A DNA stretch of 32,000 bases from Desulfatiglandales bacterium (GCA_963666345.1 OY762721.1:3661258-3693257), one strand, 5' to 3'; positions 14,691 to 32,000 are shown, counted from the stretch's first letter. The notes: generated by a model not told the origin, from the letters alone. Numbers and translations: made by a program.

Positions 14691-14778
14691 TACGAATTTA
14701 ACCGGAAAGCCCCTTTCCCATTCAGGTCACTTTTTCGCTTCCTGTCTGTTGAAAGGGGCTTCTAGGTGAAAAGAGATC

Positions 14779-15849: not shown

Positions 15850-16063
15850 ATGAGATAAAATCCCCTTGTCCGATTAAGCTGGAGAAGAACCTTTTCAATA
15901 ATCCGGCATTCAGGGAAAACCAGGATAGAAGGATTTTGCATTTAAGGGTCATCTCCAAAAGAGTTGATTTAAATGAAGGAGTCTTTGCTCTTCTTATTCC
16001 TCGCTCAGTCCCACCCTTCGACAAGCTCAGGGCGGGTTCCCGGAAGGGGCCAAGGGTTCTAGG

Positions 16064-16273
16064 TATGGGAGGAAAACGAGTATAGAGTATGTGAGATTTC
16101 TCTATATTGCATATGGTTCAGTCTGTGAATCGGAAATTCGGGCCATGATATCAGCTGAATTGGGTTATTTGAAAGAAGTAAGGCTTCAGGAATTAAGGGG
16201 GAAAATCGGGGATGTCGAGACAATGCTCAAAGCGTTGATCAAATCCCCGGAAAGAAAACCCTCGAATCCTTGA
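16064..16273 (+). pseudogene. 5'-truncated four-helix-bundle protein gene fragment (C-terminal about 70 codons only)
   Basis: YGRKTSIEYVRFLYIAYGSVCESEIRAMISAELGYL... is homologous to codons 55 onward of the 8701..9102 gene. Upstream, homology is replaced by an 18-nt terminal-repeat-like sequence (16046-16063). Confidence 0.7.
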
Positions 16274-16321
16274 CTCCTGGAACCCTTGGACCCTTTCTCC
16301 CAACTAATTGGGAGAAGAACC
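16064..16321. repeat. Right arm of about 250-bp inverted repeat (pairs with 8691-8940)
   Basis: Same hand alignment as the left arm. The arm carries an 8-nt insertion (TTGACTCC) relative to the left arm. Confidence 0.85.
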
Positions 16322-16359
16322 GCATTTTTAACCGGCAGAAAGGGAGGTAAACAGGATCG

Positions 16360-17760
16360 ATGAAAGACATGAGAGATTTTATCCAAGAGGCGGAAGCCCG
16401 GGGCCTGCTCCACAGGATAAAGGCCGAGGTGGACTGGAACCTTGAGCTGTCCCATATCGCAAAACTTAACGAGGAAAACCAGGGACCGGCACTGCTTTTC
16501 GAAAACGTCAAGGATTACGACTCCCCAGTCATCACGAGCGTGTGCACCACCACCGAAAGACTTGCCCTCATAATGGGCATGCCGGGGGAATCGTCCTTGG
16601 TGGACATCATGAGGATGTGGGTGGAGAAAAATGAAGACAGGATTCCCCCCAGATATGTGGACAATGCGCCGTGCAAGGAAAACATCATGATGGGTGATGA
16701 TGTGGATCTTTTCAGGTTTCCCGCGCCCAAGTTTTATCCGATGGACGGCGGGCGTTTTTTCGGTACCGCCCATTTCGTGGTCACAAAAGACCCTGATACC
16801 GGGTGGGTCAACCTTGGCACATACAGGCTCCAGCTCCTGGACAAAAATCATCTCGGAACCCAGTTCATAAAGGGAAAGCATGCGGATATCATGCTCAAGA
16901 AATACCAGAAGCTGAAGGAGCCGATGCCTGTTGCGGTAGTGGTGGGATGCGACCCGATACTCTTTCTGATGGGGGCCTCAAGGCTCTCGGCCTTTGAAAG
17001 TGAATATGATTTCGCAGGCTCCATAAGGGGTGAGGCAATAGATGTAATAAAGGCTGAGACAAACGACCTGCCGGTTCCGGCCACGGCCGAGATCGTGGTG
17101 GAAGGGGAGGTGGACGCGGACACATTCATGGACGAAGGCCCGTTCGGCGAGTACACAGGCTACTATTCAGGTGTGGGGACCGACCCGAGAAATTTCATAG
17201 ACGTAAAGTGCGTGACCCACAGGACAAATCCCGTGTTCTGGTCCACCACGGTGGGACGCGCGGTGACGGACACCCACATGACCATGGCGCTTACCTACGG
17301 CGCGACCCTGTGGCAGCAGCTTGTCGCCATGAAAATCCCCGGCATAAAGGCGGTCTACTGCCCGCCCGAGGGCTCGGGACGCTTTCTTGCCATAATTTCC
17401 ATGACCCAGATGTATCCGGGACACGCGGATCAGGTCCTTACCGCCGCCATATCGACCGAGATGGGCGCCTACGGCCTCAAGACCGTTATCGTGGTGGATG
17501 ATGATATCGACCCGTGGGATATATCAAGGGTCATGTATGCGCTCAGCTTCAGGTTTCAGCCTAACAGGAGTCAGGTAATAAAAAGAGGGAGGTCCACCCC
17601 GCTTGATCCTTCTCTTCCCTTAAACGCAAGGGAGATCACAGGCAGGCTCCTGCTGGACGCCACCATACCGTATGACTGGAAGGAAAAGCCGATCCCTATT
17701 GAGCTTGATCCGGAGCTGGTGGAAAAGATAAAGGGCCGATGGTCTGAACTGGGGTTTTAG
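16360..17760 (+). CDS. UbiD-family prFMN-dependent (de)carboxylase
   Basis: 466 aa. N-terminus MKDMRDFIQEAEARGLLHRIKAEVDWNLELSHI...GPALLFENVKDY is typical of UbiD-family enzymes. GGGAGG RBS. Size matches the phenylphosphate carboxylase alpha/beta-type subunits. Confidence 0.85.
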   Translation: MKDMRDFIQEAEARGLLHRIKAEVDWNLELSHIAKLNEENQGPALLFENVKDYDSPVITSVCTTTERLALIMGMPGESSLVDIMRMWVEKNEDRIPPRYVDNAPCKENIMMGDDVDLFRFPAPKFYPMDGGRFFGTAHFVVTKDPDTGWVNLGTYRLQLLDKNHLGTQFIKGKHADIMLKKYQKLKEPMPVAVVVGCDPILFLMGASRLSAFESEYDFAGSIRGEAIDVIKAETNDLPVPATAEIVVEGEVDADTFMDEGPFGEYTGYYSGVGTDPRNFIDVKCVTHRTNPVFWSTTVGRAVTDTHMTMALTYGATLWQQLVAMKIPGIKAVYCPPEGSGRFLAIISMTQMYPGHADQVLTAAISTEMGAYGLKTVIVVDDDIDPWDISRVMYALSFRFQPNRSQVIKRGRSTPLDPSLPLNAREITGRLLLDATIPYDWKEKPIPIELDPELVEKIKGRWSELGF

Positions 17761-17777
17761 ACAGGGGGAGAATCGAT

Positions 17778-19439
17778 ATGAAGCCTATCCGCTATGATCC
17801 GGAAGAGATAGAGAAAAATTTGAGGGAGGGTTTCTGGGATAAGACCATCCTGCCCGACTTTTGGGAGAAAAACGCCAGGCTGTGGCCTGACAGGGAGGCC
17901 CTTGTCGATTCCCTCGGATCCAGGCTGACCTGGGCCGAGGCCGCGCAGAGGATCGACAGGATCGCGTTCGGGCTTATAAAGGAGGCGGGTGTTAAGAGGG
18001 ATGACAGGCTCATGGTGCAGCTTCCTAACTGCGTGGAGCAGGTCCTTGTTCGCCTTGCCTGTGAAAAGGCGGGGGTCCTTTCCATACCCGAGATGACCAC
18101 CTTCAGGCAGACGGAGCTTGCGGACATCGCAAAAAGGACGGACGCGGCGGGCATGGTAATTGCCAGGAGCTACAGAAACTTCGACCACCATGAAATGGCA
18201 AGGGAACTTCAGGCTCAGCTGCCGGGACTCAGGCACATCATAGTGGCGGGGGACGACGTGCCTCAAGGCTGCATCTCGTTGAACGAGATCATGGCTCACC
18301 CATATGAGAAGGAGTTCGACATCCTGGAGCTTATCGCCAGGAAGCTTGACGCGGTGGAAGAGGTGGGCTTTCTTATCACGACCACCGGCACCACAGGCCT
18401 TCCGAAGCTTATCGAGCACAGGATAGCGGCGCGCGAGATCTGGACCGCAAGATCGCATGTGAAAAACTGGAAGCTCGGCCCTGATGACTGCGTGATCGCC
18501 ATCGCCCCGCTCGCAGGGGCCGCCGGGGGCACGCCCGCCTATGTTACGGCACCGGTGGGGGGAGCCAAAATCGCCCTTGAATACCAGTACAGGGGAGAGG
18601 AAACGCTCGCCTTCATGGAACAGGAGCGGGTCACGGTGATCGCCCTTGTGCCGACCCAGCTCGCAAGGCTGCTGGAACTTCCCACCGGCAAATATGACCT
18701 TTCATCTTTAAGGATAATAAAGACCGCCGGAGGGTACCTGCCGCCCCCGCTTGCAAAGGAGGCCCAGGAGAGGTTCAACTGCCCCATCCTCGGGACATAC
18801 GGCACGCAGGATACAGGTTCCATATCAGGGGTGCCGATCGACGCACCCGAGGACCTGAGAAACTTCACCGTTGGAAGGCTTCATCCGGGAATAGAGATAA
18901 AGATACTGGATGATGAGGGAAACCGGGTTGAAAAAGGGGGCGTGGGCACCCTATGGTTCAAGGGGCCGGGAAATTCGATCGGTTATTACAGGGATATAGA
19001 TAAAACCATGAACGAGGCCTTTGACAGGGACGGTTTTGCCACGCCCGGAGACCTTGTGGAGCTTATGGATGACGGTTATATCAAGATCATGGGCAGGAAG
19101 AAGAACATCATCATAAGGGGCGGGCAGAACATATATCCAAGGGAGATAGAGGACTATCTGCTGGCGCACGAAAAGGTCACTAACGCGGCCGTCGTTCCCA
19201 TGCCTGATCCTCAGATGGGTGAGAGGGCGTGCGCCTTTGTCACGGTCAAAAAGGGAGAGATGTTCCAATTCGAGGAGATGATCGCATATCTCAAGGAAAA
19301 GAAGATCGCTCCCTTTAAGCTGCCTGAAAGGCTCGAGGTACTCGACGCCCTTCCCCTGGTCGGGGAAAGCGGCAAGATAAACAACAAGGAAATGGTCAGG
19401 ATCATAACCGAGAAGCTTAAGGAGGAGGGGAAGATCTAA
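17778..19439 (+). CDS. AMP-binding acyl/aryl-CoA ligase (adenylate-forming enzyme)
   Basis: 553 aa with the ITTTGTTGLPKL AMP-binding motif and GDLV...GRKKNIIIRGGQNIYPREIE. 18 nt after the UbiD stop, with a GGGGGAG RBS. Confidence 0.85.
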   Translation: MKPIRYDPEEIEKNLREGFWDKTILPDFWEKNARLWPDREALVDSLGSRLTWAEAAQRIDRIAFGLIKEAGVKRDDRLMVQLPNCVEQVLVRLACEKAGVLSIPEMTTFRQTELADIAKRTDAAGMVIARSYRNFDHHEMARELQAQLPGLRHIIVAGDDVPQGCISLNEIMAHPYEKEFDILELIARKLDAVEEVGFLITTTGTTGLPKLIEHRIAAREIWTARSHVKNWKLGPDDCVIAIAPLAGAAGGTPAYVTAPVGGAKIALEYQYRGEETLAFMEQERVTVIALVPTQLARLLELPTGKYDLSSLRIIKTAGGYLPPPLAKEAQERFNCPILGTYGTQDTGSISGVPIDAPEDLRNFTVGRLHPGIEIKILDDEGNRVEKGGVGTLWFKGPGNSIGYYRDIDKTMNEAFDRDGFATPGDLVELMDDGYIKIMGRKKNIIIRGGQNIYPREIEDYLLAHEKVTNAAVVPMPDPQMGERACAFVTVKKGEMFQFEEMIAYLKEKKIAPFKLPERLEVLDALPLVGESGKINNKEMVRIITEKLKEEGKI

Positions 19440-19655
19440 CGGCCTCCCCGGTTCGGGAATATAGCCGTGGTGTAGGGTTATATGTTATAGGTTATTTGAA
19501 AATGAGTGAACAGAAGCCTTGTCTTCGGCTGCGTACTCTAGTTTTCCGGCAATCTTTCTAACCAATAACGAACAACCAGATGCCTAACCAGTGTGCCATT
19601 TTAAGGAAACGTGGGCAAACGAGTGGTTGCTCCATGCCAGGAAGGAATCCCCCCC

Positions 19656-20252
19656 ATGACCCATGACGGCAAAAGGCCCCTGATCCTCTTTGTATGCTGC
19701 GGAAACAGGGAAAGGAGCGTGATAGCGGAAAACCTTTTTAAAAAGATGCTGAAAAAGGGATATCCTGATTTATCAGACCGGGTGGATGCGGCCTCAGCCG
19801 GCATATTCCCCAGGTCATATTTAGAGCATGCAGGGGAAAACGGGGTCTTTTTCGAAGAACCTTTTTTTTCAAAAAAGGCCAATACCTATGCCGTGGATTA
19901 CCTCCTGAAAAAGGGGATAGACGTAGCATCATACAGGTCAAGGCGGATTAACTCAGGTCTTGTCACAGATGCCCTTCTCATACTTGCCGTAGATCGGGTG
20001 ATAAGGGATGAGATCCTTTTCTTTTATCCGGAGGTCCAAGGCAGGGTCCATACCCTCAGGGAGTTCGTGTTCGGCCCGGAAGGGGACCTCGATATAGGTG
20101 ATCCCATGAAACTGCCCGTTGTTGATAAGGACACCGGCGCCTGGATATGGCCTGACGAATACCCCGTGAGGTATATAAAGGAGATCGAGGAGAGCCTTGA
20201 AAAGGGAATGGTCAAGATAGTGGCTTACATAATGAGCGAGGGGATGGATTAG
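19656..20252 (+). CDS. Low-molecular-weight protein-tyrosine-phosphatase-like (LMW-PTP/ArsC fold) protein with internal insertion and C-terminal extension
   Basis: P-loop LILFVCCGNRERS fits V-C-x-G-N-x-x-R-S (CX5R-S). A DIGDP Asp-Pro loop is present. The only two Cys are in the P-loop, so there is no ArsC-type redox Cys pair. Start set at ATG 19656 (AGGAAGG upstream); the GTG at 19611 is possible. Confidence 0.65.
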   Translation: MTHDGKRPLILFVCCGNRERSVIAENLFKKMLKKGYPDLSDRVDAASAGIFPRSYLEHAGENGVFFEEPFFSKKANTYAVDYLLKKGIDVASYRSRRINSGLVTDALLILAVDRVIRDEILFFYPEVQGRVHTLREFVFGPEGDLDIGDPMKLPVVDKDTGAWIWPDEYPVRYIKEIEESLEKGMVKIVAYIMSEGMD

Positions 20253-20253
20253 A

Positions 20254-21492
20254 TTGAATAGAACAAAGGGTGCGATCATAGTTCTGGTAATGGCTGAGGA
20301 AAAATGGGTGGAGGCGAATTTTTTCCGTGCTCAAATTACCTCTCTCGGCCACAGGGCCGAGATCCTTGATATGGGCCTTACCGGAGGGCCTGCCGGGCCC
20401 TGCGCTATCGGACGGGAGGAGGTGATAGCGGCAGGCGGCACAGGCGTGGACGAGGCCTCTCTTATAACGGACAGGGGCAAGAGGATGCCCCTTATGATAA
20501 AGGGGGGGAGAAAAAAGGTAAAAGAGCTTTACGAACAGGGAATGCTCACAGGGGTCGTGAGCCTTGGGGGGACCACGGGGACCCAGATGGGGACCTCCAT
20601 CATGAAGGCGCTTCCATTCGGCGTTCCCAAGCTCGCGGTGTCAAGCACGGCATCGCTTAAGGGGTTCGCCTCAAGATACCTCGGTACATCGGATGTCTCG
20701 CTCATGCACACGGTGGTCGAGATCGCGGGGCTTAACCGGTTCATGAAAAACGCGCTTGCACGCGCGGCAGGGGCCGTGTGCGGCATGGTGGAGGGGGGGC
20801 TCAGGGAGCCTGTCGCGCCGGAACAGGGGGGTGTGAGTCCGGTTGTAGCCATGACCCACTTCGGGCCGTGCGAACATTGCGCGGTAAGGGTTCGAAATCT
20901 ACTTGAGGAGCGCGGTTACCAGGTGGTGGGTTTTTCCGCTGCCGGTATCGGGGATCGGGCCATGGAGGAGATAATCGAATCGGGCGGCGTCTTTTCTGCG
21001 GTCATAGATCTTGCCACGGGCGGGGTGGGTGAGGAACTGCTGGGATTTGCCAGGGCAGCGGGGGCCTCAAGGCTTGAGGCGGCGGGAAAAAAGGGGATAC
21101 CGCAGGTGATTGCCACAAGCGGGGTCAATTTCGGCTCCCCCTGGAAGTACAGGTACAAGCCTGAATATGAGTCAAGAAAAAAAATTGAGTATGACAGAGC
21201 CCGCACCTTTATAAGGCTCTCGCAAGACGAGTTGGTCCGGGTGGCGACCGTCATGGCGGAAAAGTTGAACCGCGCAGCGGGTCCGGTGAGGGTGGTAATC
21301 CCGCTTGGCGGGTGGTCATCCGTTGATAAGAAGGGAAGCTTCTTTTATGATGGTGAGGCGGATCAGGTATTTGTCGAGACGCTGGAAAGGGAATTGCGGG
21401 ACGATATCGAGGTCAGGGAAGTGGACGCGGACCTTGAGACGGATGAATTCGCAAAGGTTATCGTGGATTCGTTTCTGGAAATTATTTCGTAG
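20254..21492 (+). CDS. UPF0261 / Tm-1-like ATP-binding domain protein, paralog 2 (divergent N-terminal motif)
   Basis: 412 aa. Central SLGGTTGTQMGT and VPKLAVSST align with paralog 1. The N-terminal GTFDSKGEE of paralog 1 is replaced by VMAEEKWVE. The TTG start at 20254 is 1 nt after the upstream stop and is uncertain. Confidence 0.65.
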   Translation: MNRTKGAIIVLVMAEEKWVEANFFRAQITSLGHRAEILDMGLTGGPAGPCAIGREEVIAAGGTGVDEASLITDRGKRMPLMIKGGRKKVKELYEQGMLTGVVSLGGTTGTQMGTSIMKALPFGVPKLAVSSTASLKGFASRYLGTSDVSLMHTVVEIAGLNRFMKNALARAAGAVCGMVEGGLREPVAPEQGGVSPVVAMTHFGPCEHCAVRVRNLLEERGYQVVGFSAAGIGDRAMEEIIESGGVFSAVIDLATGGVGEELLGFARAAGASRLEAAGKKGIPQVIATSGVNFGSPWKYRYKPEYESRKKIEYDRARTFIRLSQDELVRVATVMAEKLNRAAGPVRVVIPLGGWSSVDKKGSFFYDGEADQVFVETLERELRDDIEVREVDADLETDEFAKVIVDSFLEIIS

Positions 21493-21537
21493 AGAGAATC
21501 AGGTGCCGGTTGCCTGATAAACGCGCGGGGGCCTTAC

Positions 21538-21921
21538 ATGGAATACAGGTTCATGACGCATGAGGGGTGCTATGATCTTGTGGCGAACGCAAGACTGGTG
21601 GGAGACGATCTGCTGGTTGCCATATGGGGCGGAGACAGGCCCCATATCGGCGCTGTATCCATGGCCCAGCCCAGGGCAAGCCTCAGGGACCCTTCAAAGC
21701 TGAGTGCTACTGCTTCCGTGTTCACGTATGTGGGGCACAAGGAGGACATTCTCGCAAAACCCGCTTCAGAGACCCTGGCCTCCGCCCTGAACAAGAAGGT
21801 GGTGGTAACGGCAGGTATCCACTGGGATGATATGGAAGAAAAGGGCATTAAAAGGGTGATAAAAAACTGTGAGATTCTGATCGGGATGATTGTAAAGGAG
21901 TTTTCATCTTCAAAAAGCTGA
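21538..21921 (+). CDS. Small UbiD/UbiX-associated protein, possibly LpdD-like prenylated-flavin chaperone
   Basis: 127 aa, WGGDRPHIGAVSMAQP motif. Sits immediately upstream of ubiX. The family assignment comes from memory of LpdD-type proteins and from context only. Confidence 0.35.
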   Translation: MEYRFMTHEGCYDLVANARLVGDDLLVAIWGGDRPHIGAVSMAQPRASLRDPSKLSATASVFTYVGHKEDILAKPASETLASALNKKVVVTAGIHWDDMEEKGIKRVIKNCEILIGMIVKEFSSSKS

Positions 21922-21950
21922 CTCTGTCAGGCGTGGGGGATGGTTCTAAA

Positions 21951-22523
21951 ATGAAAAAAAGACTCATTATCGCGATAACCGGCGCAAGCGGTGTGATTTA
22001 CGGTGTGAGGATGCTCGAACTGATAAGGGAACACGGCTTTGAGACGCATCTTATAATATCAGAGGCGGGCAAGAAGAATATCGAGATCGAGACAGGCTTT
22101 AAGCTCAGGGATATAAAGGCGCTTGCCGATTACAGCCATGAAAACATGGACGTGGGGGCCCCGCTTGCAAGCGGCTCGTTTCTGACGGGGGGTATGGTGG
22201 TGGTGCCCTGTACCATCAAGACCCTGTCAGGGATTACCAATTCCTACAACGACAACCTGATCGTGAGGGCGGCAGACGTCACGTTAAAGGAGGGGCGCAA
22301 GCTGGTGCTGGTTGTAAGGGAGACCCCTCTTCACAAGGGGCATCTGAGACTCATGACCATGGCGGCCGATGTGGGCGCCCACATACTTCCCCCGGTCCCA
22401 TCCTTTTATAACAAGCCTGAAACCATCGACGACATAATCAATCAGACCATAGGAAAGATCTTCGACTACCTGGGCGTGGAGCACGATCTGTTTGCCCGCT
22501 GGGGAAGATATGACTCATGCTGA
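21951..22523 (+). CDS. ubiX: UbiX-family flavin prenyltransferase
   Basis: MKKRLIIAITGASGVIYGVRMLE... and VVPCTIKTLSGI motifs. About 190 aa. Start set at ATG 21951, with GGGGGA 11 nt upstream. Confidence 0.9.
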   Translation: MKKRLIIAITGASGVIYGVRMLELIREHGFETHLIISEAGKKNIEIETGFKLRDIKALADYSHENMDVGAPLASGSFLTGGMVVVPCTIKTLSGITNSYNDNLIVRAADVTLKEGRKLVLVVRETPLHKGHLRLMTMAADVGAHILPPVPSFYNKPETIDDIINQTIGKIFDYLGVEHDLFARWGRYDSC

Positions 22524-24304: not shown

Positions 24305-25531
24305 TTATATGGTGTGAAGACTGTCCTTTGCCTTTTTAAGCCTTTCTATGGCAAGGCTTCCACTTATGATGCAGTATGCGTTTTCAAGATACGCGGCATT
24401 AAGCCCGGTTGTCTCGGCAAGCCTTCCAAGCCTTTCCTCTTGTCCCAGGATCTTGAAACCGAGGATGGTCCTTACCCCTGCCGCCCTCAGCTTTGCCGCG
24501 TCCGAGCCGAACTGGAGGCAGAGCCTTCCCTGAAGCATCCAGTCGACAAGTTCCCTCGGCTTGAACGGGGTGTTGAGTATCAGCTCAATGAGGCTTGCCT
24601 TTACAAGGTTCTGCACGTTGTCGATCCCCTGCTCAAAGAACCTCTCCTTGTGGTAGGAGGTTATGCCCTCGAGCAGGTCGAGGGGAAGCCTTGAGGCCCT
24701 CTGCTCCGGCCTGCTTGCCGAGAATTTGAAGCGCTCCGCCATGTAGGTAAGGGCGCGCTGGGGGAAAAAGCCTATAAGAAACGAGATCACAGGGAGCATA
24801 TCCGTCAATGTATCGTCAGGCACCAGGTCCACCCTGATTTCGCCCGACATGAGCTCACCTGATGGTAGGGCCGAGATAAAGTAGTAGAATATGAGCGAGA
24901 CAAAGGTGCTCAGCACCATCCTGACACCCACCCCGTAATAGGCGGCAGGAGGAAGATCTATGGTGATAAGGCGTCTCAGGATGTAGCGTATCGACCATAT
25001 GTAGGCGCCGAGGAATGCTATGAGCATGGAAAGAAGCGCCGGCGAACAGGTAAGATCCGATCCGTCATGCTCGAGCACGAGCTTCGGCACGGAAAGGAGC
25101 CTTTTCCCTCCCTCGCAGAACATGAGGCAGAAGGCCATTAGGCTGAATATGGTCACAAACAGGAGGGGCAGGGCATAGTCCCACTGGCTGTACCTTCTGT
25201 CCGACACGATCAGGGTATGGGCATCTTCAATGTCCACGTTCTTAAGATTCTCTATTATCCTTTCGTGCTCGATCTCTTTTCTTGGAAGTCGAAGTGTGCG
25301 GTATGATACGAATGTAAAGGGTAGAAAAGAGATGAGAAGGACAATTCCCGCGTAGAAATACCAGCTCTCGGTAAAGGCCGCCACATTGGATGTCTTGACG
25401 TTGAGATAAACGATTAAAACAAGGGTTGCAAGGGTGAGCCCGAGCAGAAAGGCGAATGTCTTCCCACGCCTTTTTATGATCCCGGGCCGGTCTTTTTCCT
25501 TTTTCTGGCTCTCTTCAGGTAAGCTGTCCAT
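24305..25531 (-). CDS. Hypothetical polytopic membrane protein (about 6 TM) with about 140-aa C-terminal soluble helical domain
   Basis: 408 aa with hydrophobic segments throughout the first 270 aa. The C-terminal LPLDLLEGITSYHKERFFEQGIDNVQNLV looks helix-hairpin-helix-like. GGAGG RBS. Confidence 0.6.
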   Translation of the reverse strand: MDSLPEESQKKEKDRPGIIKRRGKTFAFLLGLTLATLVLIVYLNVKTSNVAAFTESWYFYAGIVLLISFLPFTFVSYRTLRLPRKEIEHERIIENLKNVDIEDAHTLIVSDRRYSQWDYALPLLFVTIFSLMAFCLMFCEGGKRLLSVPKLVLEHDGSDLTCSPALLSMLIAFLGAYIWSIRYILRRLITIDLPPAAYYGVGVRMVLSTFVSLIFYYFISALPSGELMSGEIRVDLVPDDTLTDMLPVISFLIGFFPQRALTYMAERFKFSASRPEQRASRLPLDLLEGITSYHKERFFEQGIDNVQNLVKASLIELILNTPFKPRELVDWMLQGRLCLQFGSDAAKLRAAGVRTILGFKILGQEERLGRLAETTGLNAAYLENAYCIISGSLAIERLKKAKDSLHTI

Positions 25532-25643: not shown

Positions 25644-25661
25644 TGCACATAAATTTGTGCA
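25644..25661. promoter_or_regulatory. 18-bp dyad TGCACA-TAAATT-TGTGCA (extended palindrome 25640-25665)
   Basis: Read directly. It lies in the upstream region of the minus-strand gene 24305..25531. Confidence 0.6.
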
Positions 25662-25960
25662 TCATTAGGATAAGGTCCTGCCTGAAAGTTTAAAAAATCA
25701 CAAAAGCCAAATATTAAACATAATATCAATAGGTTGAATTTGTAAAAAGAACACTTACGCATGATATATGAAGCAAGTAGCGTGCCCCTTATTGTGTGCC
25801 GTGGAAAACCCAAATGGAAAAAGATGAATGAATCAGGCAGGTGCCTGTGGAAGACAGATATGGTAAGGGAATCAGTGGGTTTTGGAAAATTTTCTTATCT
25901 TGGGAGAGGGCATGAAAAATGAAGGAGGGTAAAGGGGCGATTTTGATTTTTTCGTTTTTT

Positions 25961-26000
25961 TGCACATTTTTTTGTGCATGAGTGCACATGATTATGTGCA
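25961..26000. promoter_or_regulatory. Two 18-bp dyads TGCACA-N6-TGTGCA (25961-25978, 25983-26000), centres 22 bp apart
   Basis: Read directly, about 100 bp upstream of the antitoxin gene. Confidence 0.6.
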
Positions 26001-26062
26001 AAAATCTCTGATAGTGGTGGTTACTCCCTGAAATGATATTGAAAAATGATTCAGGGCATGAT

Positions 26063-26085
26063 AGACTAGTCTGAAACTAGTCTGA
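26063..26085. promoter_or_regulatory. Candidate toxin-antitoxin operator: AGACTAGTCT palindrome, with ACTAGTCTGA repeated at 11-bp period
   Basis: ACTAGTCTGA at 26065-26074 and 26076-26085, overlapping the RBS (GAGGAG) of the antitoxin gene. Type II antitoxins commonly autoregulate through such sites. Confidence 0.45.
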
Positions 26086-26095
26086 GGAGTGAACC

Positions 26096-26335
26096 ATGGA
26101 AAAAGTAGGAGCATATGAGGCCAAGACGCACCTGCCCAAGTTGCTTGAACGGGTGATGAAAGGGGAACGCATCACAATCACAAAACATGGTATCCCTGTC
26201 GCGGTACTCCAGTCGCCTGATCCTGAAAAAATGGTGAATACCGAATCGGTTATCGCCGAAATCCGTGAATTGCGGGACATGCATCGGCTTGACGGCGTCT
26301 CAATCCGTGAGATGATTGATGAAGGAAGAAGATGA
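26096..26335 (+). CDS. Type II antitoxin, Phd/YefM-like
   Basis: 79 aa. MEKVGAYEAKTHLPKLLERVMKGERITITKHGIPVAVL is a typical Phd/YefM-type N-terminal fold. It overlaps the toxin gene by 4 nt (ATGA). Confidence 0.8.
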   Translation: MEKVGAYEAKTHLPKLLERVMKGERITITKHGIPVAVLQSPDPEKMVNTESVIAEIRELRDMHRLDGVSIREMIDEGRR

Positions 26336-26754
26336 TAATGGGCTCCTTTGTGGTGGATAATTCAATTGTGATGTCATGGTGTTTTAAAGATGAGGCAAAT
26401 CAATATGCCGATGCGGTGCTGGATTTTCTTTCCGAGGCAACCGCCTTTGTCCCGTCGATCTGGCCGTTTGAAGTAGTAAATGTATTGCTGGTGGCGGAGC
26501 GTCGAAAACGCCTCAGCGAAGCGGACAGCGTCCGGTTTATGACACTGTTGTCGCATCTGCCGATAGTTGTGGAATATGAACGTCCGGAAAGGACGATGAA
26601 GGATCTCCTGGCACTTGCAAGATCCAATAACCTTTCAAGCTATGACGCCTCCTATCTCGATCTTTCCATGAGAAAGGGCATTCCCATTGCCACATCGGAC
26701 AGACGGCTGATAGAGGCCTCAAAAAGGATCGATGTCCCGATTCTTGAAATTTGA
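26332..26754 (+). CDS. vapC: Type II toxin, VapC (PIN domain) ribonuclease
   Basis: 140 aa. N-terminal FVVDNS acidic residue, central E (WPFEV), C-terminal ATSDRRL. PIN-domain spacing. Coupled to the upstream antitoxin. Confidence 0.8.
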   Translation: MIMGSFVVDNSIVMSWCFKDEANQYADAVLDFLSEATAFVPSIWPFEVVNVLLVAERRKRLSEADSVRFMTLLSHLPIVVEYERPERTMKDLLALARSNNLSSYDASYLDLSMRKGIPIATSDRRLIEASKRIDVPILEI

Positions 26755-26823
26755 AATCTCTCTTCGATACCCATGTTTCAACTCTGTGATATTCAAAGTG
26801 AATTCAGGCCTTTGGTAAGCTAA

Positions 26824-26904
26824 TGCATGTTTTTTTTGTGCTCGGATAATTTTATGCACATAAAACTGTGCATCCTTGCTTCTCATTGCACATGTTTATG
26901 TGCA
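26824..26904. promoter_or_regulatory. Array of three dyads: degenerate TGCATG-N7-TGTGCT (26824-26842), then TGCACA-N6-TGTGCA at 26855-26872 and 26887-26904
   Basis: Read directly. Centre spacing is about 30.5 and 32 bp. The array is 157 bp upstream of the 27061 gene. Confidence 0.6.
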
Positions 26905-27060
26905 TTTAGTAAAATTAACTATATGGTGCATCTTTTTATGATTCCAGTATCGGTTACGCTTTTATGGATGCGCAAAAAAAATAGTTTCTACTGTCAAATC
27001 TCTGATATTTTTGCTAAAAATCAGAGCATCATTTATGAGTTTCAATGTCAGTGAGGTAAA

Positions 27061-27942
27061 ATGAAAACTTCAGAATCCCTGCTCATAGGAGCATTCGATA
27101 TCCACATACATGCGGGACCCGACATAGTTCCCAGGAAAATGGATGCTGTCGATCTGGTCTCAGAGGCCAGGGATGTCGGAATGGCCGGAATTCTCATAAA
27201 AGATCATGTTAAACCTACTTCTGATCGGGCATATATGTTGAGTCGTTTATTTCCGGACATTCAGGTCTTTGGAGCCCTTGCTCTCAACTATACGGTGGGT
27301 GGGATAAACCTCCATGCGGTACGTGCGGCCGTTCGTAGCGATGTCAAGCAAATCTACATGCCTACCTTCTCTGCTGCCCATGATATAAGGCAGGGGGGAG
27401 GTGTCAGGGAGTCATACAGAGATCTTGTCCCGCAAAATGAAGATGTTGGAATTAAAATCGTGGATAATGAGGGAAACTTTATGAGAGCTTTGAATGAAAT
27501 CCTGAAAACTGTTGCCGAAAGTGACACGATTCTGGGGACCGGTCATATTTCCCCTCATGAATCTTTAGGTTTAATAAAAAGAGCCAGGGCGCTTGGTGTC
27601 GATAAAATACTGGTAACTCACCCTATGAGTCACTCGGTTGACATGCCTTTGAAAGACCAGAAAGAGGCTGTCTCAATGGGTGCAATCATAGAACACTGTT
27701 ATTTTGCCTGCACACCGCTTGCGTGCAGCGAACCTTTAGAGGCTCTAAGAAAGATGGCTGCACAAATCCAAGCGGTTGGACCTGGAAATTGTATTATGTC
27801 CACCGATTTGGGCCAATCCCAAAACATTTCTCCTGTTGAGGGCATGAAGGAATTCATTGAGAAAATGCTCTCTTGCGGTATCTCAGAAGAACAAATTGAT
27901 ATAATGATAAGGAAAAATCCGAAAAAGATCCTTGGGCTGTAA
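27061..27942 (+). CDS. Amidohydrolase-superfamily (TIM-barrel metal-dependent hydrolase)-like protein
   Basis: 293 aa. N-terminal FDIHIHAGPD (HxH metal motif), later GHISPHE and VTHP. GAGG RBS. Specific function unknown. Confidence 0.55.
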   Translation: MKTSESLLIGAFDIHIHAGPDIVPRKMDAVDLVSEARDVGMAGILIKDHVKPTSDRAYMLSRLFPDIQVFGALALNYTVGGINLHAVRAAVRSDVKQIYMPTFSAAHDIRQGGGVRESYRDLVPQNEDVGIKIVDNEGNFMRALNEILKTVAESDTILGTGHISPHESLGLIKRARALGVDKILVTHPMSHSVDMPLKDQKEAVSMGAIIEHCYFACTPLACSEPLEALRKMAAQIQAVGPGNCIMSTDLGQSQNISPVEGMKEFIEKMLSCGISEEQIDIMIRKNPKKILGL

Positions 27943-28042
27943 ACGTCATTGAACGGGTTATTCCCTTAAAAGTCTTTATTGAAACGACAGACATACCCGG
28001 CGAATTAACCAATTGACAAATAATCAGGGGAGATATCAGCAA

Positions 28043-29005
28043 ATGTATGAACTCGAATTAATAGAATCGGCAGAAAAACTGGTAAGGGAAGTAATAAGGG
28101 TAAAAAAGGAAGACAGCGTGCTTGTGGTTACTGACGCTGATAAATTGAACGTTGCCAAGGCGCTTTCGCTCTCCTGCCGGGGACTTGGCTCTGAAACAGT
28201 CATCACAATTGTTCCCTTAACAGGTGAACACGGCCAGGAACCTCCGGCAACAGTTGCAGCAGCTATGAAGGCTGCCGATGTGGTATTTGCTCCTACAACC
28301 CATGCCCTTACACATACCCGGGCGAGACTGGATGCCTTTAAAGCCGGGGCCCGCGTAATAATACTGAGAGGCGTGACCGAAGACATGATGGTAAGAGGGG
28401 CGATGACCGTAGATTTTAATGAACTTAAGGAAAGGACCGGGACCATTTCAGAAAAACTTGGTAAGGCGAACAATATTTCAGTGACTTCCCATGAGGGTAC
28501 AAATGTCACTTTCAGTATTGCAGGCCGTAATGCCTTTTCGCTTGACGGTTTTTTTCATGAAGAATACGGATTTGCCACACTGCCGCCGGGAGAGGCGCCG
28601 ACCTGTCCGGTGGAAGGAACAATGGAAGGGACATTGGTTTTTGATTATTCCATGGATGGCATCGGAAAACTGAGCCAGCCCCTTAGGCTTGAAATCAGAC
28701 AGGGTGAAGTCGTTTCTGTTTCAGGCGGAATAGAAGAGGTAAGCTTTCTTGAGCAGATATTTGAAAAAGACCCGACAGCGCGAAATATAGCTGAATTTGC
28801 CGTCGGAACAAATCCCAACGCGCGACTTATCGGGAATCTTGCGGAAGACAAAAAACTGGCCGGTACGGTCCACTTTGCCGTAGGGGACAATAAGTCTCTT
28901 GGGGGAGTTGTTGAAAGCAGTGTGCATCTCGACGGACTGATGCTAAAGCCGACCGTTATTGCAGATTATGCCACCCTGGTCAGCGAAGGCAAGTTGGTTT
29001 TATAA
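28043..29005 (+). CDS. Aminopeptidase T / M29-like family protein
   Basis: About 320 aa. The fold-level resemblance (AmpS/aminopeptidase-T-like; EFAVGTNP, VHLDG motifs) is from memory. Start set at ATG 28043 (GGGGAG upstream) rather than TTG 28013. Confidence 0.5.
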   Translation: MYELELIESAEKLVREVIRVKKEDSVLVVTDADKLNVAKALSLSCRGLGSETVITIVPLTGEHGQEPPATVAAAMKAADVVFAPTTHALTHTRARLDAFKAGARVIILRGVTEDMMVRGAMTVDFNELKERTGTISEKLGKANNISVTSHEGTNVTFSIAGRNAFSLDGFFHEEYGFATLPPGEAPTCPVEGTMEGTLVFDYSMDGIGKLSQPLRLEIRQGEVVSVSGGIEEVSFLEQIFEKDPTARNIAEFAVGTNPNARLIGNLAEDKKLAGTVHFAVGDNKSLGGVVESSVHLDGLMLKPTVIADYATLVSEGKLVL

Positions 29006-29224
29006 ATACAGGGTCTTGAGTGGAGCAGATGATTAAAAGCGGTATAAGTCCTAGTCATAACTATTAAAAACAAGTACTCAAAACGCTCCAAAATTTCAGG
29101 GAAAAAACCTAGTGAAATTTTAAGATATTTTTCCATTGATCTGAATGCCTCTGGAGTTGCCCGACTCCAAGTCTCTGCAAAATCTTATAATAGTCGTTAG
29201 CTAGGCTAGAATATCCTTTTCCGC

Positions 29225-29252
29225 TTGACATGCCGCCTTTTTCTTCTATCGT
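29225..29252 (+). promoter_or_regulatory. Candidate sigma70-type promoter (TTGACA-16 nt-TATCGT) upstream of the MgtC-family gene
   Basis: Perfect -35 hexamer at 29225-29230 and a weak -10 at 29247-29252. This would give a leader of about 120 nt. Confidence 0.3.
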
Positions 29253-29379
29253 ATTAGCCGTCTTTTCATAAGGTTATTGGGGAAATGGGGACCTGAGGTA
29301 ATTCCTTGCGTCTGCTTCGGCAGCATACAGGCGGGGCGACCGCTTACACAAACAGATGTCATTTTTCAGGAGATTTCCA

Positions 29380-30075
29380 ATGTCAGTATTTTTTACCGAT
29401 TACAGCGAGTTTCTGATCAGGATACTTATAGCATCGTTGCTGGGCGGATTGATCGGTCTGGAAAGAGATATTCACGGACGCGCGGCCGGTCTCAGGACTC
29501 ATCTGCTGGTCAGCCTGGGAGCGGCGGTTTTTACGATCCTGTCCGGGGTCATTGCCGGCAGTGTCGGACCATCGGGGTTTCAAGGCGACCCGGGTCGGAT
29601 CGCGGCTCAGGTCGTGACAGGCATCGGGTTTTTGGGAGCCGGTGTGATTATAAAGGAAGGCATCAATGTCCGCGGTTTGACGACCGCCGCGTGCCTGTGG
29701 ACAGTGGCTGCAATCGGAATGGCGGCCGGAAGCGGTTGTTACCTGCTTGCCGTTTCTACTACCGGTATTGCCTTAATCGGCCTTGTAATCATTAAATATT
29801 TCGAGAGCTTGTACTCCAAGGATTCTTACAGAATCTTGTGTATCAGCACTCCGATCGAAGTTAATACCTCCCGGATAATAGATATCGTCAAGAGCAGCAG
29901 GTTAAGGGTCCTTACCTGTGACATAGAGAAAAACTATGAAACCGGCATTTCCCTTACGAGATTGTACATCCGGCTCTTTCACCGCGGCATTACAGACAAG
30001 CTTGCTCACGGCGTTATCAGTTCGCTTGAGAGTTCTTCCCTCAAGCTTAAAGAGGTTAAATGGGAGCACGCATAG
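29380..30075 (+). CDS. mgtC: MgtC/SapB-family membrane protein
   Basis: LLGGLIGLERDIHGRAAGLRTHLLVSLGAAVF and GIGFLGAGVI are hallmark MgtC motifs. A soluble C-terminal domain follows. Start set at ATG 29380 (AGGAG 7 nt upstream). Confidence 0.85.
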   Translation: MSVFFTDYSEFLIRILIASLLGGLIGLERDIHGRAAGLRTHLLVSLGAAVFTILSGVIAGSVGPSGFQGDPGRIAAQVVTGIGFLGAGVIIKEGINVRGLTTAACLWTVAAIGMAAGSGCYLLAVSTTGIALIGLVIIKYFESLYSKDSYRILCISTPIEVNTSRIIDIVKSSRLRVLTCDIEKNYETGISLTRLYIRLFHRGITDKLAHGVISSLESSSLKLKEVKWEHA

Positions 30076-30106
30076 AAGCAGGCCTGCTACGGCTCCGATA
30101 TATTTA

Positions 30107-30186
30107 TGCACATAAAAATGTGCACGGATAATTTTATGCACATGTTTTTGTGCATCCTTGTTTCACAATGCACATGTTTATGTGCA
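30107..30186. promoter_or_regulatory. Array of three perfect dyads TGCACA-N6-TGTGCA (30107-30124, 30137-30154, 30169-30186)
   Basis: Read directly. Centres are 30 and 32 bp apart. The array is followed by a TTGACA hexamer at 30231-30236. Confidence 0.6.
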
Positions 30187-30868
30187 TTCAATAAAAAATT
30201 GCAATAAATCGGCTAAAAACATGTTTTCTTCTTGACATAACCTGTCATTCCACTAACCTACCTTTCGTACCATTGCTTCAAACAGCCTTTTTATTAAAAA
30301 AGGGCCCTGACCATGACGCTTCACCTGAAATTTTGCCTATCCCCCTCCTGACGGAAGATTTCTTTTCTGCCGGGGGGTGCTTGAAAGAATCAAATATATT
30401 TTTAGAAGCTTATTTTTCGGCTCACTCGAAAAGCGGCAGGCTTTTGACTGGTAGAGTTTCAGACTGTTTGTTGAGGGTGCTTCTTTTGATTCATCTGGAG
30501 CATTTGAAGCATGCGCTAGGGAGTAAAGAGCCCCTTGGACGAGTTGTGAAGGTGAAACAATGGTCTCTTATATATAAACCATATATCACTCCTCGCTAAG
30601 GGTTGAAAACTGCTTAATTGCTTGTAATGATAAGGTTTATGCCAGTTCAGAGAAGGGATATTATGACGCGATTTTGCAGCATATAGGGTTAGGGGTCGAG
30701 CCGCGGTAACGTAATGAAATAACTTGGAAAGAATACTAAAAAGGGTCAAGAATATTGAAAAGGGCGGTATATGACTCAATAACAGGTATTTTTGGAATGA
30801 TTCTTATCCACGATCAATAGATTGTTGAGGTCCAACCGCAAGACAAACGTAGGGTCGAGGTCGAGACT

Positions 30869-31245: not shown

Positions 31246-31470
31246 CTACCGTGGTGAAGGTCTCCTCAGGGAGAAACGGGAAACCATCGGATCAAAATCG
31301 CGATCATCATGGAGCAGGGGCAATCCTTCCATGATGCAGAAGGTTCCGATAATTACATCAATTGGTTTTCGAACCGTAACCGCGGATTTTCGGAGTGCCC
31401 GGTAATTTTGGGCACTTTGAATAGCGATATTATATCCACCGATCTGGCGAAACGGGAGAGCGCTGAGCAA
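31246..31470 (-). pseudogene. PIN-domain (VapC-like) toxin remnant, C-terminal half only
   Basis: IIGTFCIMEGLPLLHDDRDFDP is a typical PIN C-terminal motif. The frame upstream of the TTG start stays open for only 16 more codons before a stop, so the N-terminal catalytic Asp region is absent. No antitoxin gene is adjacent. Confidence 0.5.
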
Positions 31471-31616
31471 GCCCCTGGCAGTTTTATAATGGGTCTGGGG
31501 TCGGACCGAGATAACTAGCTAAAATAACATCTAAAAGCTTGGAAATTAAGTGTTTTTCAATGCTCAAACCATCAATTTTGATGCCAAAATTGGCTGATTA
31601 AGCAAATGGTAATAAT

Positions 31617-32000
31617 ATGCCAAGGGCAAATCGTCATTATATACCTGGATATGTATGGCATATAACCCATAGGTGCCACAAGAAAGAGTTTCTCCTTAAG
31701 TTTGCCCGGGACCGTCGGCGTTGGATAGAGTGGCTCTTCGAAGCGAAAAAGAGATATGGTTTAAGCATTCTCAACTACATGGTTACATCAAACCATATTC
31801 ATTTGTTGGTCTCAGACAGTGGTAAAAGGGACACAATACCTAAATCAATTCAACTGATAGCCGGTAGAACAGGTCAGGAATATAATCACAGGAAGGGAAG
31901 GAAGGGTGCCTTTTGGGAAGACCGTTATCATGCCACTGCAGTTGCGTTGGATGAACATCTGTTCAAATGCATGGTATACATTGATATGAATATGGTAAGG
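31617..32000 (+). CDS. IS200/IS605-type Y1 HUH transposase or REP-associated tyrosine transposase (RayT)-like protein, 3' end outside window
   Basis: Not in the ORF track because there is no stop in the window. My translation gives MPRANRHYIPGYVWHITHRCHKKEFLLKF...LNYMVTSNHIHLLVSDSG...GAFWEDRYHATAV. The HIH(LL) HUH motif and FWEDRYH are hallmark features of this family. Confidence 0.75.
   Translation, partial: MPRANRHYIPGYVWHITHRCHKKEFLLKFARDRRRWIEWLFEAKKRYGLSILNYMVTSNHIHLLVSDSGKRDTIPKSIQLIAGRTGQEYNHRKGRKGAFWEDRYHATAVALDEHLFKCMVYIDMNMVR

Follow-up and report, generated by a model that had tools for sequence, protein, structure and literature searches.

We identified eight perfect copies of the 18-bp dyad TGCACA-N6-TGTGCA within a 32,000-nt stretch of Desulfatiglandales DNA (the window), which on balance are probably sites for an NtrC/AtoC-like sigma-54 activator conserved in Desulfobacterales sulfate reducers and encoded elsewhere in the genome, with, far more tentatively, a repressive role at two of the arrays (B and C). 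The dyads would thus most likely be a fresh instance of a well-known type of gene switch and not a novel class of element. An initial annotation had proposed cooperative arrays of an unknown activator or repressor, which was right in kind, and the evidence now points to the enhancer (UAS) of an NtrC-family sigma-54 activator.

Dyads of the window

The repeated 18-bp palindromes are real. A pattern search of the whole window returned perfect sites at 25644, 25961, 25983, 26855, 26887, 30107, 30137 and 30169, all eight where the initial annotation had placed them, while 100 dinucleotide-preserving shuffles gave 0 matches (expected 0). Allowing up to 2 mismatches added one match in the window, at 16658 within a UbiD gene, which is chance level. 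The degenerate copy reported at 26824 is present and aligns with the perfect dyad at 30107; its arms carry 3 mismatches and its spacer (T7) is 7 nt long. Start-to-start spacings of 22 bp, 31 and 32 bp, and 30 and 32 bp reproduce the 22 and 30-32 bp described earlier. No credible coding sequence in the window contains a dyad, as had been claimed, and the arrays are intergenic, although the statement that they occupy every intergenic region was too broad, the gaps 27943-28012 and 29006-29355 being without a dyad. The features discussed below are as follows.

24305-25531, minus strand: predicted target gene, encoding a 408-aa membrane protein without Pfam or NCBIfam match
25644-25661, no strand: single perfect dyad at about +100 to +117, within what is predicted to be the 5′ leader of the minus-strand gene
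25773-25787, minus strand: sigma-54-type -24/-12 promoter GGGCACGCTACTTGC, 207 bp from the array A centre, facing the 24305-25531 gene
25961-26000, no strand: array A, two perfect dyads (25961-25978 and 25983-26000) forming a tight pair with starts 22 bp apart; putative upstream activator sequence
26824-26842, no strand: decayed first dyad of array B, TGCATG-N7-TGTGCT
26855-26904, no strand: array B, perfect dyads 26855-26872 and 26887-26904, 32 bp apart
26887-26915, plus strand: sigma-70-like promoter TGCACA-17-TAAAAT, its -35 within the last array B dyad, upstream of the DUF6282 operon
27061-27942, plus strand: DUF6282 amidohydrolase-like gene, between arrays B and C
28013-29005, plus strand: M29/NicX-like peptidase gene, between arrays B and C
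29356-30075, plus strand: MgtC gene, between arrays B and C
30107-30186, no strand: array C, perfect dyads 30107, 30137 and 30169 at spacings of 30 and 32 bp; duplicate of the array B module
30169-30197, plus strand: sigma-70-like promoter TGCACA-17-TAAAAA, overlapping the last array C dyad; weaker counterpart of that of array B

The window sites share the extended consensus ATGCACAT-N4-ATGTGCAT, and position 7 is T in 8/8 of them, in both array types, compared with only 38% of sites in related genomes among the matches listed. An Rfam scan of the entire window gave no match. The dyads lie in an island-like region of lower GC content that contains toxin-antitoxin genes and IS elements.

The dyad and a candidate activator in related genomes

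A scan for two perfect dyads 2-32 bp apart, using one genome per species, found at least 117 stretches. Among the matches listed, most come from Desulfobacterales MAGs and combine A/T-rich spacers with a spacing of 20-23 bp, and the dyad is common to many genera. Pairs at 20-23 bp predominate among at least 72 Desulfobacterales-type loci; such spacings (at least 74 cases) and those of 30-32 bp place the sites whole helical turns apart. Only 10 of 168 dyads fall inside ORFs of at least 100 aa among the matches listed, though such ORFs make up 70% of the sequence; because loci qualified only with two perfect dyads in close succession and gene calls were crude, the spacing and coding/non-coding counts carry ascertainment bias. 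The consensus among these matches is A-TGCACA-N-WWWW-N-TGTGCA-T, in which the arms are invariant by construction of the search while the A/T-rich centre and A/T flanks emerged independently. The dyad is an inverted repeat of the ~17-18 bp typical of sites for dimeric Fis-type helix-turn-helix proteins, and a protein of this kind would bind it. A search of the literature for the motif in several notations found no paper.

Tight pairs are linked to sigma-54 promoters. An outward-pointing promoter (PWM score ≥ 10) lies within 350 bp of 59 of the 73 tight pairs listed, against ~6 expected, and 7 of the 14 pairs without one are at locus edges. Also among the matches listed, a regular expression for sigma-54 promoters gave 1.19 matches per kb in the vicinity of pairs against 0.085 per kb elsewhere, and pair-to-promoter distances cluster at about 85, 142, 165 and 200-220 bp. 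The 24 arm changes in weak partner dyads comprise 0 compensatory, 2 wobble and 22 broken pairings, and the lack of compensation fits sequence-specific protein recognition. A GATAWWTTTA extension 5′ of loose-array dyads was seen at only 6 of 271 dyads. Dyad pairs at 32-33 bp in Bacteroidota and in 17 of 24 viral contigs also fit the search pattern, as do 14-nt tandem repeats in Nocardiopsis, Dehalococcoidia and Pirellulaceae; their spacers are not A/T and they lack a sigma-54 promoter, and both groups were set aside as unrelated.

As short palindromes clustered between genes, with a Y1 transposase gene in the vicinity, the dyads also recall REP/BIME elements and their RAYTs, and they could be REP/BIME- or MITE-like repeats serving as RNA or DNA hairpins (terminators, mRNA stabilisers) or as Y1 (RAYT-like) substrates, which we regard as very improbable. 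The 3′ ends of vapC and mgtC are closely followed by arrays B and C, transcribed dyads would fold well (z = -3.5 to -4.9) with two flagged as terminator-like, a Y1_Tnp gene starts near 31620 and homologous transposases occur in the dyad loci L044 and L100. The dyads differ from such repeats in that the 6-bp arms and spacer length alone are conserved while spacer and flanks vary, with 0 of 24 arm substitutions compensatory, and on these grounds the reading fails; moreover the motif spans many genera among the matches listed and is not species-specific, and pairs hold fixed distances to sigma-54 promoters. The whole-length conservation, pairing-preserving stem, species specificity and flanking RAYT gene of REP/BIME families were not found, the Y1_Tnp gene is not flanked by dyads, and no U-tract follows the dyads. 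A hairpin or terminator role in RNA was rejected, folding being expected of any palindrome and the lack of covariation arguing against a structural role.

The candidate for the binding protein is an NtrC/AtoC-like response-regulator activator (REC-AAA+-HTH_8, ~450 aa) conserved in Desulfobacterales. At least 10 dyad loci encode an orthologue, 67-94% identical and with the HTH motif LGIHRNTLL, whose gene has a pair and one additional dyad on its flanks, both divergent promoters being of sigma-54 type; in these loci of other genomes the activator gene is linked to its putative sites. Among the matches listed, this HTH_8 activator is the sole DNA-binding protein repeatedly adjacent to dyads, and the members of the orthologue group, spread over more than 120 protein clusters, are at least 73% identical. 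In the reverse test, which started from protein homology alone, 3 of the 4 orthologue contexts had a 21-22 bp pair (0-1 mismatch), in each case in the divergent promoter region; the orthologue context L134 had no dyads. In one MAG, CAZENC01, a loose array (L041) occurs alongside an activator gene accompanied by a tight pair (L025). Neighbouring genes encode an acyltransferase, a B12-radical-SAM enzyme and a GAF kinase, and the candidate falls short of the equivalog cut-offs for NtrC and AtoC. No activator gene was found in the window, where the initial annotation had likewise seen no cognate regulator, nor in the flanks (10 kb to the left and ~7.7 kb to the right); we infer that the source genome encodes the activator and that it binds the dyads.

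The closest known site is the enterobacterial NtrC (NR-I) enhancer, with consensus TGCACC(A/T)4TGGTGCA (PMC4987338, Table 1). Both share the TGCAC half-site in the same orientation and an A/T-rich centre, both occur as paired or clustered sites two to three helical turns apart, tight pairs of the dyad typically lie, like NtrC sites, ~80-220 bp upstream of sigma-54 promoters, and the binding protein, here a candidate, is a REC-AAA+-Fis-type-HTH response regulator. The window site differs in being 18 bp and not 17 bp long (TGCAC-N8-GTGCA against N7), the partner kinase of the candidate is of GAF type, and the putative dyad targets are signalling and envelope genes, not the nitrogen-assimilation genes of NtrC (gln, amt or nif). 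The canonical TGCACC-N5-GGTGCA has no match in the window even with 2 mismatches. The earlier view that the dyad matches neither NtrC nor TyrR sites holds for the consensus, yet the site is of NtrC type, its spacer being longer by a single base. The likeness to TyrR boxes (TGTAAA-N6-TTTACA) is one of geometry only, namely the 6-6-6 layout and multiple boxes per promoter; the half-site sequence differs and TyrR acts with sigma-70 promoters.

In Desulfovibrio vulgaris, a sulfate reducer of a related order, the sigma-54-dependent response regulator DVU1419 targets its own operon through sites 22-29 bp apart (PMC3333781), of the EMSA-validated form TGTGCA-N6-TGCACA (Rajeev et al. 2011, PMC3333781, supplementary file 1). 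This too is an 18-bp 6-6-6 dyad of the same two hexamers, but its half-sites are everted (tail-to-tail against head-to-head here) and form a different palindrome, which has no match in the window with ≤ 1 mismatch. The inner junctions of tight pairs are N2-N5, not the N6 of DVU1419-type sites, among the matches listed.

The analysis yields a precise motif, A-TGCACA-N-W4-N-TGTGCA-T, usually in pairs spaced 21-22 bp, together with a candidate regulator and a first outline of the regulon, in which c-di-GMP/cAMP and two-component components are enriched, as are mobile-element genes; this is useful annotation knowledge and not a new principle. Sigma-54 activators are abundant in sulfate-reducing Thermodesulfobacteriota but, to our knowledge, sites or regulons are known for almost none of them except in Desulfovibrio vulgaris. 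Motif and outline would permit reconstruction of the regulon across uncultured Desulfobacterales. The predicted responders in the window are the 408-aa membrane protein and the DUF6282-M29-MgtC operon.

Array A and the 408-aa membrane-protein gene

Array A lies 207 bp from GGGCACGCTACTTGC, within the roughly 80-250 bp at which NtrC-family sites stand from sigma-54 promoters, whereas the single dyad at 25644 and arrays B and C have no sigma-54 promoter in this range. Pair-to-promoter distances of 206-210 bp recur at seven loci of related genomes (L047, L073, L095, L059, L092, L110 and L111), and because array A matches this class, its target is probably the 408-aa gene and not vapBC. The initial annotation had placed the 25961/25983 pair ahead of vapBC, which has its own promoter-like site and repeat; the minus-strand gene, reached through the sigma-54 promoter, is the likelier partner. 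GGGCACGCTACTTGC has a PWM score of only 8.2 (training promoters: median 21, minimum 4.8), because G replaces the first T. As a classical enhancer, array A would assemble the phosphorylated activator on two dyads two helical turns apart, and looping to sigma-54 holoenzyme at GGGCACGCTACTTGC (25787-25773, minus strand) would then switch on the 408-aa gene.

The 408-aa protein family is confined to Thermodesulfobacteriota. Upstream of its homologues (33-57% identity; 7 loci, 4 protein clusters) there are no dyads and no sigma-54 promoters, and so no phylogenetic footprint for this target. No degenerate partner lies near the single dyad, whereas apparently single dyads in other loci often have a weak partner 21-22 bp away. 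The 25644-25661 dyad may be an auxiliary, looping or roadblock site.

Arrays B and C and the genes between them

Arrays B and C are copies of a duplicated ~95-bp module (26837-26914 and 30119-30196 are 86% identical over 78 nt), hence the eight dyads are not eight independent events. The homology ends where the -10-like hexamer ends. Array B precedes the DUF6282 operon (start 27061), as described earlier for the amidohydrolase operon, and the promoter of array C is followed by ~680 bp without a called gene, in agreement with the ORF-poor stretch reported past mgtC.

Together the two arrays hold 6 of the 9 sites and no sigma-54 promoter follows them in strict and PWM searches, which gave near-background matches at ~27223 (plus strand) and ~31590 (minus strand). 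As the last dyad of each overlaps a sigma-70-like -35/-10, our best guess, a weak one, is that the same protein represses these promoters: bound to three dyads per module, three helical turns apart, it would occlude the promoter and down-regulate the DUF6282-M29-MgtC operon. NtrC also represses sigma-70 promoters through overlap, and its occlusion of glnAp1 is our model here. The overlapped promoters are weak consensus matches, the array C -10 being without the final T. Similar loose arrays at L019, L023, L041 and L098 do not consistently overlap promoters, and footprinting of array B by a metagenome scan with the DUF6282 protein returned only two distant loci, neither with dyads.

Arrays B and C might alternatively be remote enhancers of distant or non-canonical sigma-54 promoters, namely GGGCATATATGTTGA (~27227, inside the DUF6282 gene; PWM score 11.8) and TTGGCATCAAAATTGA (~31586, minus strand; 15.5). 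NtrC-type enhancers can act over kilobase distances and the NtrC sites at glnAp2 are spaced 30-32 bp, as in these arrays. Matches this strong occur ~4 times per 64 kb searched, so both are near background, one lies inside a CDS and the other is 1.4 kb away facing a gene fragment, and we consider this quite improbable.

It is unlikely, if less so, that a repressor or activator of sigma-70 type, with no relation to sigma-54, uses the dyads as operators, in the manner of a phage-like repressor and its tripartite operators, which would make the activator-gene link in other genomes coincidental or the work of a second protein. This would account for the three sites of arrays B and C, without a sigma-54 promoter and with the last over a sigma-70-like -35/-10, and would suit the island-like surroundings (toxin-antitoxin genes, IS elements, lower GC) and the loose arrays found elsewhere among toxin-antitoxin modules. 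However no repressor gene was found nearby, the HTH_8 activator alone recurs beside dyads among the matches listed, and arrays B and C share half-sites and spacer length with array A and with the 59 of 73 listed pairs linked to sigma-54 promoters, as well as the window-specific T at position 7 with array A.

The two ~95-bp direct repeats also bracket a 3.2-kb three-gene segment, an IS insertion polymorphism lies beside array C and the multi-site arrays have iteron-like 30-40 bp spacing, features expected if arrays B and C were centromere-like, iteron or recombination sites around a mobile DUF6282-M29-MgtC cassette. The centromere/iteron and recombination-site readings of the initial annotation nevertheless lack their partner genes: the segment and the DNA beside it contain no par, rep, integrase or recombinase gene, Pfam scans covering all neighbouring genes gave no adjacent parAB or rep such as accompany plasmid/ICE parS sites or iterons, the arrangement is unchanged in 5/5 related contigs and the same dyad is promoter-associated elsewhere. 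We give this reading very little credence.

Returning to the sigma-54 activator, it is possible, though we hold it only tentatively, that it is a global regulator with a large plastic regulon and two site grammars, tight pairs serving sigma-54 promoters and loose arrays being sigma-54-independent. Targets of tight pairs would be second-messenger and two-component genes (PilZ, MshEN ATPase, HD-GYP, VpsT-like, cyclase and stand-alone receivers) and mobile-element genes, whereas loose arrays of 3-7 dyads in toxin-antitoxin-rich islands might act in sigma-70 repression, island insulation or titration of the regulator. In some strains of the window's lineage an IS is inserted at 30735-30743, and an anaerobic phenol-degradation cluster adjoins the predicted responding genes.

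Recurrent dyads within the window

All eight perfect copies of the 18-bp dyad TGCACA-N6-TGTGCA reported in the initial annotation were recovered from the window, while none occurred in any of 100 dinucleotide-preserving shuffles. Permitting two mismatches added a single match only, at chance level and within the UbiD gene. The reported degenerate copy is also present (TGCATG-T7-TGTGCT) and can be aligned with the perfect first dyad of array C, so named below. The observation of repeated dyads is solid. Every site is intergenic, as had been seen by eye, although the claim that dyads occupy every intergenic region was overstated, since the gaps 27943-28012 and 29006-29355 contain none. The sites and neighbouring genes are:

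12831-22523: phenol-type anaerobic degradation cluster (PEP-utilising, PPDK_N/PPDK-like, UbiD-like carboxylase, CoA ligase, UbiX flavoprotein)
24305-25531, minus strand: 408-aa membrane protein
25644: single dyad
25961 and 25983: array A
26824-26842 (degenerate), 26855 and 26887: array B
30107, 30137 and 30169: array C
31620-32000 and beyond (16063-16863 in L118, the right flank): IS200/Y1_Tnp (RAYT-like) transposase, 266 aa
Lower-GC stretch, other genes: Phd/PIN pair (vapBC), DUF6282 amidohydrolase-like, M29-like peptidase, MgtC

From about 22.5 kb onward the window has a lower GC content and hypothetical genes. The degradation cluster also encodes two UPF0261 proteins and an LpdD/PAC_bac-like chaperone, a make-up typical of anaerobic phenol/hydroxybenzoate activation, and is preceded by a LysR regulator and a stand-alone receiver protein; TctABC genes are also present in the window. 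Near-identical copies of the locus were found in several metagenome assemblies and in one 4.16-Mb NCBI contig. The initial annotation saw no cognate regulator gene in the window, which was borne out: no sigma-54 activator gene was found there, in 10 kb to the left (L137) or in approximately 7.7 kb to the right (L118), and these flanks hold no further dyads.

Position 7 of the dyad is T in all eight window copies, across both array types, but at only 38% of dyads in related genomes among the matches listed, which fits a single protein reading all of the window dyads.

Dyad pairs and sigma-54 promoters in other genomes

A scan for two dyads separated by 2-32 bp, in which each species was represented by one genome and for which some 0.07 chance matches were estimated, identified at least 117 stretches. 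Among the matches listed the majority came from Desulfobacterales/Desulfobacteraceae MAGs, many of which contributed several loci, and the Desulfobacterales-type spacing (start to start) was 20-23 bp in at least 74 cases with few at 30-32 bp. The logo of 167 sites among these listed matches reads A-TGCACA-N-WWWW-N-TGTGCA-T, its four central bases being A or T at approximately 90-98% by position. Only 10 of 168 listed dyads fell within ORFs of at least 100 amino acids, which make up 70% of the sequence, a count that depends on crude gene calls and on loci chosen for their possession of pairs.

Scan matches with non-A/T spacers and no sigma-54 promoter appear unrelated to the Desulfobacterales motif. 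Dyads of the Bacteroidota have such spacers, are 32-33 bp apart and lie at most a few bp from AAA_14/DUF4143 ATPase genes, and no sigma-54 promoter was found at their pairs. This 32-33 bp arrangement is a separate system with the same hexamers (L004, L007, L032, L038, L039, L049, L080, L085, L097 and L101), and pairs so spaced were also present in 17 of 24 viral contigs (L141-L162). Other unrelated-looking matches were 14-nt tandem repeats in Nocardiopsis, Dehalococcoidia and Pirellulaceae, and a Nitrospirales repeat. The latter, from one MAG (L014, L037, L065, L079), comprises TGCACACTTAAGTGTGCA pairs 30 bp apart within a longer sequence recurring in both orientations, and resembles the terminus of a repeated mobile element.

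It is unlikely that the dyads are hairpin, REP or terminator elements. They fold, as any palindrome does, but of 24 arm changes in weak partner dyads 0 are compensatory, spacers and flanks are variable, and the motif is found across many genera. The initial annotation proposed centromere, iteron or recombination sites, an alternative against which the absence of the partner genes argues.

Upstream regions of the recurrent neighbour genes contain textbook -24/-12 promoters 85-220 bp past the pair (e.g. TGGCACATATGTTGA and TGGCACGTTTTTTGA). At the loci listed, matches to a promoter regular expression numbered 1.19 per kb up to 350 bp from pairs versus 0.085 per kb elsewhere. Using a weight matrix (PWM) built from the pair-linked promoters themselves, an outward-pointing promoter was found within 350 bp of 59 of the 73 pairs among the matches listed, where about 6 would be expected. 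Of the 14 pairs without one, seven are at locus edges. The distances separating the -12 element from the centre of the pair form clusters near 85, 142, 165 and 200-220 bp. Such a promoter can also go with a lone dyad, as at L132/L133 (6474-6600), where about 95 bp separate a single perfect dyad from a sigma-54 promoter that precedes an operon for a PAS kinase, a receiver, an HD-GYP protein, a PilZ protein and a cyclase.

A candidate regulator and its possible gene set

Among the matches listed, the commonest neighbour of the dyads encodes a REC-AAA+-HTH_8 response regulator of approximately 450 amino acids. At least ten copies form one orthologue group (67-94% identical) with the HTH motif LGIHRNTLL. 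The gene is typically divergent from an operon for a lipid-A-type acyltransferase, a B12-radical-SAM enzyme, a GAF histidine kinase and an enolase-like protein, and the dyad pair there has a sigma-54 promoter on each side; another dyad, often with a weak partner 21-22 bp off, is present at the gene's other end. By NCBIfam the activator is nearest to AtoC and NtrC, although under every equivalog cut-off, and its DNA-binding domain is similar to those of Aquifex NtrC4/NtrC1 and of NtrX, which are of the Fis type. The group is abundant in metagenomes, where more than 120 listed protein clusters share at least 73% identity with the query, all under generic names only.

In a reverse test, four orthologue contexts were selected on protein homology alone. 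The divergent region of each of L132/L133 (82% identity), L135 (73%) and L136 (74%) holds a pair of 21-22 bp spacing (0-1 mismatch), adjoined by strong sigma-54 promoters in L132/L133 and L136; PWM hits scoring at least 13 in L135 fall elsewhere in the locus (6651 and 2868). L134 (76%), with a different gene context, contained no dyads. The motif is best explained as a putative NtrC-family enhancer of an uncharacterised, widely conserved Desulfobacterales two-component system.

The enteric NtrC enhancer, TGCACC(A/T)4TGGTGCA (PMC4987338), resembles the dyad in half-site, orientation and A/T centre but is one base shorter, and canonical NtrC sites are absent from the window, in agreement with the initial annotation. 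In D. vulgaris, the sigma-54 regulator DVU1419 recognises TGTGCA-N6-TGCACA, a site validated by EMSA whose pairs are spaced 22-29 bp (PMC3333781, main text and supplementary file 1). It has the same hexamers in everted order, which makes it a different palindrome, and it too is absent from the window. Our literature search found no paper describing TGCACA-N6-TGTGCA.

Among the matches listed, we collected 38 genes that stand first after a pair-linked sigma-54 promoter. Eleven encode receiver-domain proteins (five being the activator itself), seven acyltransferases and three ParB-like/N6_N4 DNA methylases, with one each of PilZ, GAF-MshEN-T2SSE ATPase, HDOD, adenylate/guanylate cyclase, VpsT-like LuxR regulator, TIG/beta-propeller protein, RelE and integrase N-terminal domain. 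REC-REC-HD (HD-GYP-type) regulators lie approximately 70-140 bp from tight pairs in L047 and L073. We infer that this gene set points to control of second-messenger and envelope functions by a module that mobile elements may have captured. A paralogous module, consisting of a dyad pair, a 164-165 bp spacer, a sigma-54 promoter and a ParB-like/N6_N4 DNA methylase or RelE-type gene, recurs in L001, L012, L015, L018 and L064, four of them from MAG MFD02416.bin.2.25, which suggests mobile elements wired into the same regulator.

Use of the motif in the window

Array A, with its 22 bp spacing, lies 207 bp from the candidate sigma-54 promoter GGGCACGCTACTTGC (minus strand, 25787-25773), which has G for the first T, a PWM score of 8.2 and is directed at the 408-aa membrane-protein gene. 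The same distance class is found in L047, L073, L095, L059, L092, L110 and L111; the intervening sequence has no homology to these seven loci, so the likeness is one of architecture and not of common descent. In other Thermodesulfobacteriota, genes homologous to that for the 408-aa protein have neither dyads nor sigma-54 promoters. The single dyad at 25644 has no partner and lies near +100 of the leader predicted for the minus-strand gene. The initial annotation saw array A ahead of vapBC, on its other side; the array more probably serves the minus-strand gene, and vapBC has a sigma-70-like site (TTGAAA-17-TAGACT) and a repeat (ACTAGTCTGA) of its own. A repeat just upstream of the Phd/PIN pair, ACTAGTCTGAAACTAGTCTGA (26060-26090), is plausibly the operator of the toxin-antitoxin pair itself, apart from the dyads. 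Array A would be the window's one classical enhancer use of the motif.

Arrays B and C (26824-26915 and 30107-30197) are two copies of a single module of approximately 95 bp, 86% identical over 78 nt, and no sigma-54 promoter was found at either. Homology stops about 10 bp past the third dyad and the module ends exactly on a -10-like hexamer (TAAAAT, 26910-26915; TAAAAA, 30192-30197), the third dyad containing a -35-like TGCACA or TTGCAC. Binding of a protein to this dyad would block access to a sigma-70 promoter, in the manner of NtrC at glnAp1. The two modules, of uncertain function, are possibly repressive, the explanation's least secure step; they may instead be operators of an unrelated sigma-70 repressor. 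Loose arrays of this kind, with 3-7 dyads 30-50 bp apart and no sigma-54 promoter, occur in L019, L023, L041 and L098 beside toxin-antitoxin modules, an MFS transporter gene and a DUF3999 gene, and one MAG combines a loose array (L041) with a copy of the activator that has a tight pair (L025).

No gene was called in the approximately 680 bp after array C. Strains differ here: some near-identical metagenome contigs have an insertion sequence (L118 13684-15172; also L121) at 30735-30743, between array C and a 109-aa ORF, with a DDE_Tnp_1/DUF772 transposase of 436 aa and a 9-bp overlap at the junction. The Y1_Tnp gene (31620 on) is not flanked by dyads; homologues with approximately 70% DNA identity are present in two other dyad-bearing loci (L044 and L100). 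The best sigma-54 promoter match of the window, ATTTTGGCATCAAAATTGATGG (31567-31590, minus strand, PWM 15.5), is 1.4 kb from array C and directed at a short PIN-like gene fragment (31246-31470).
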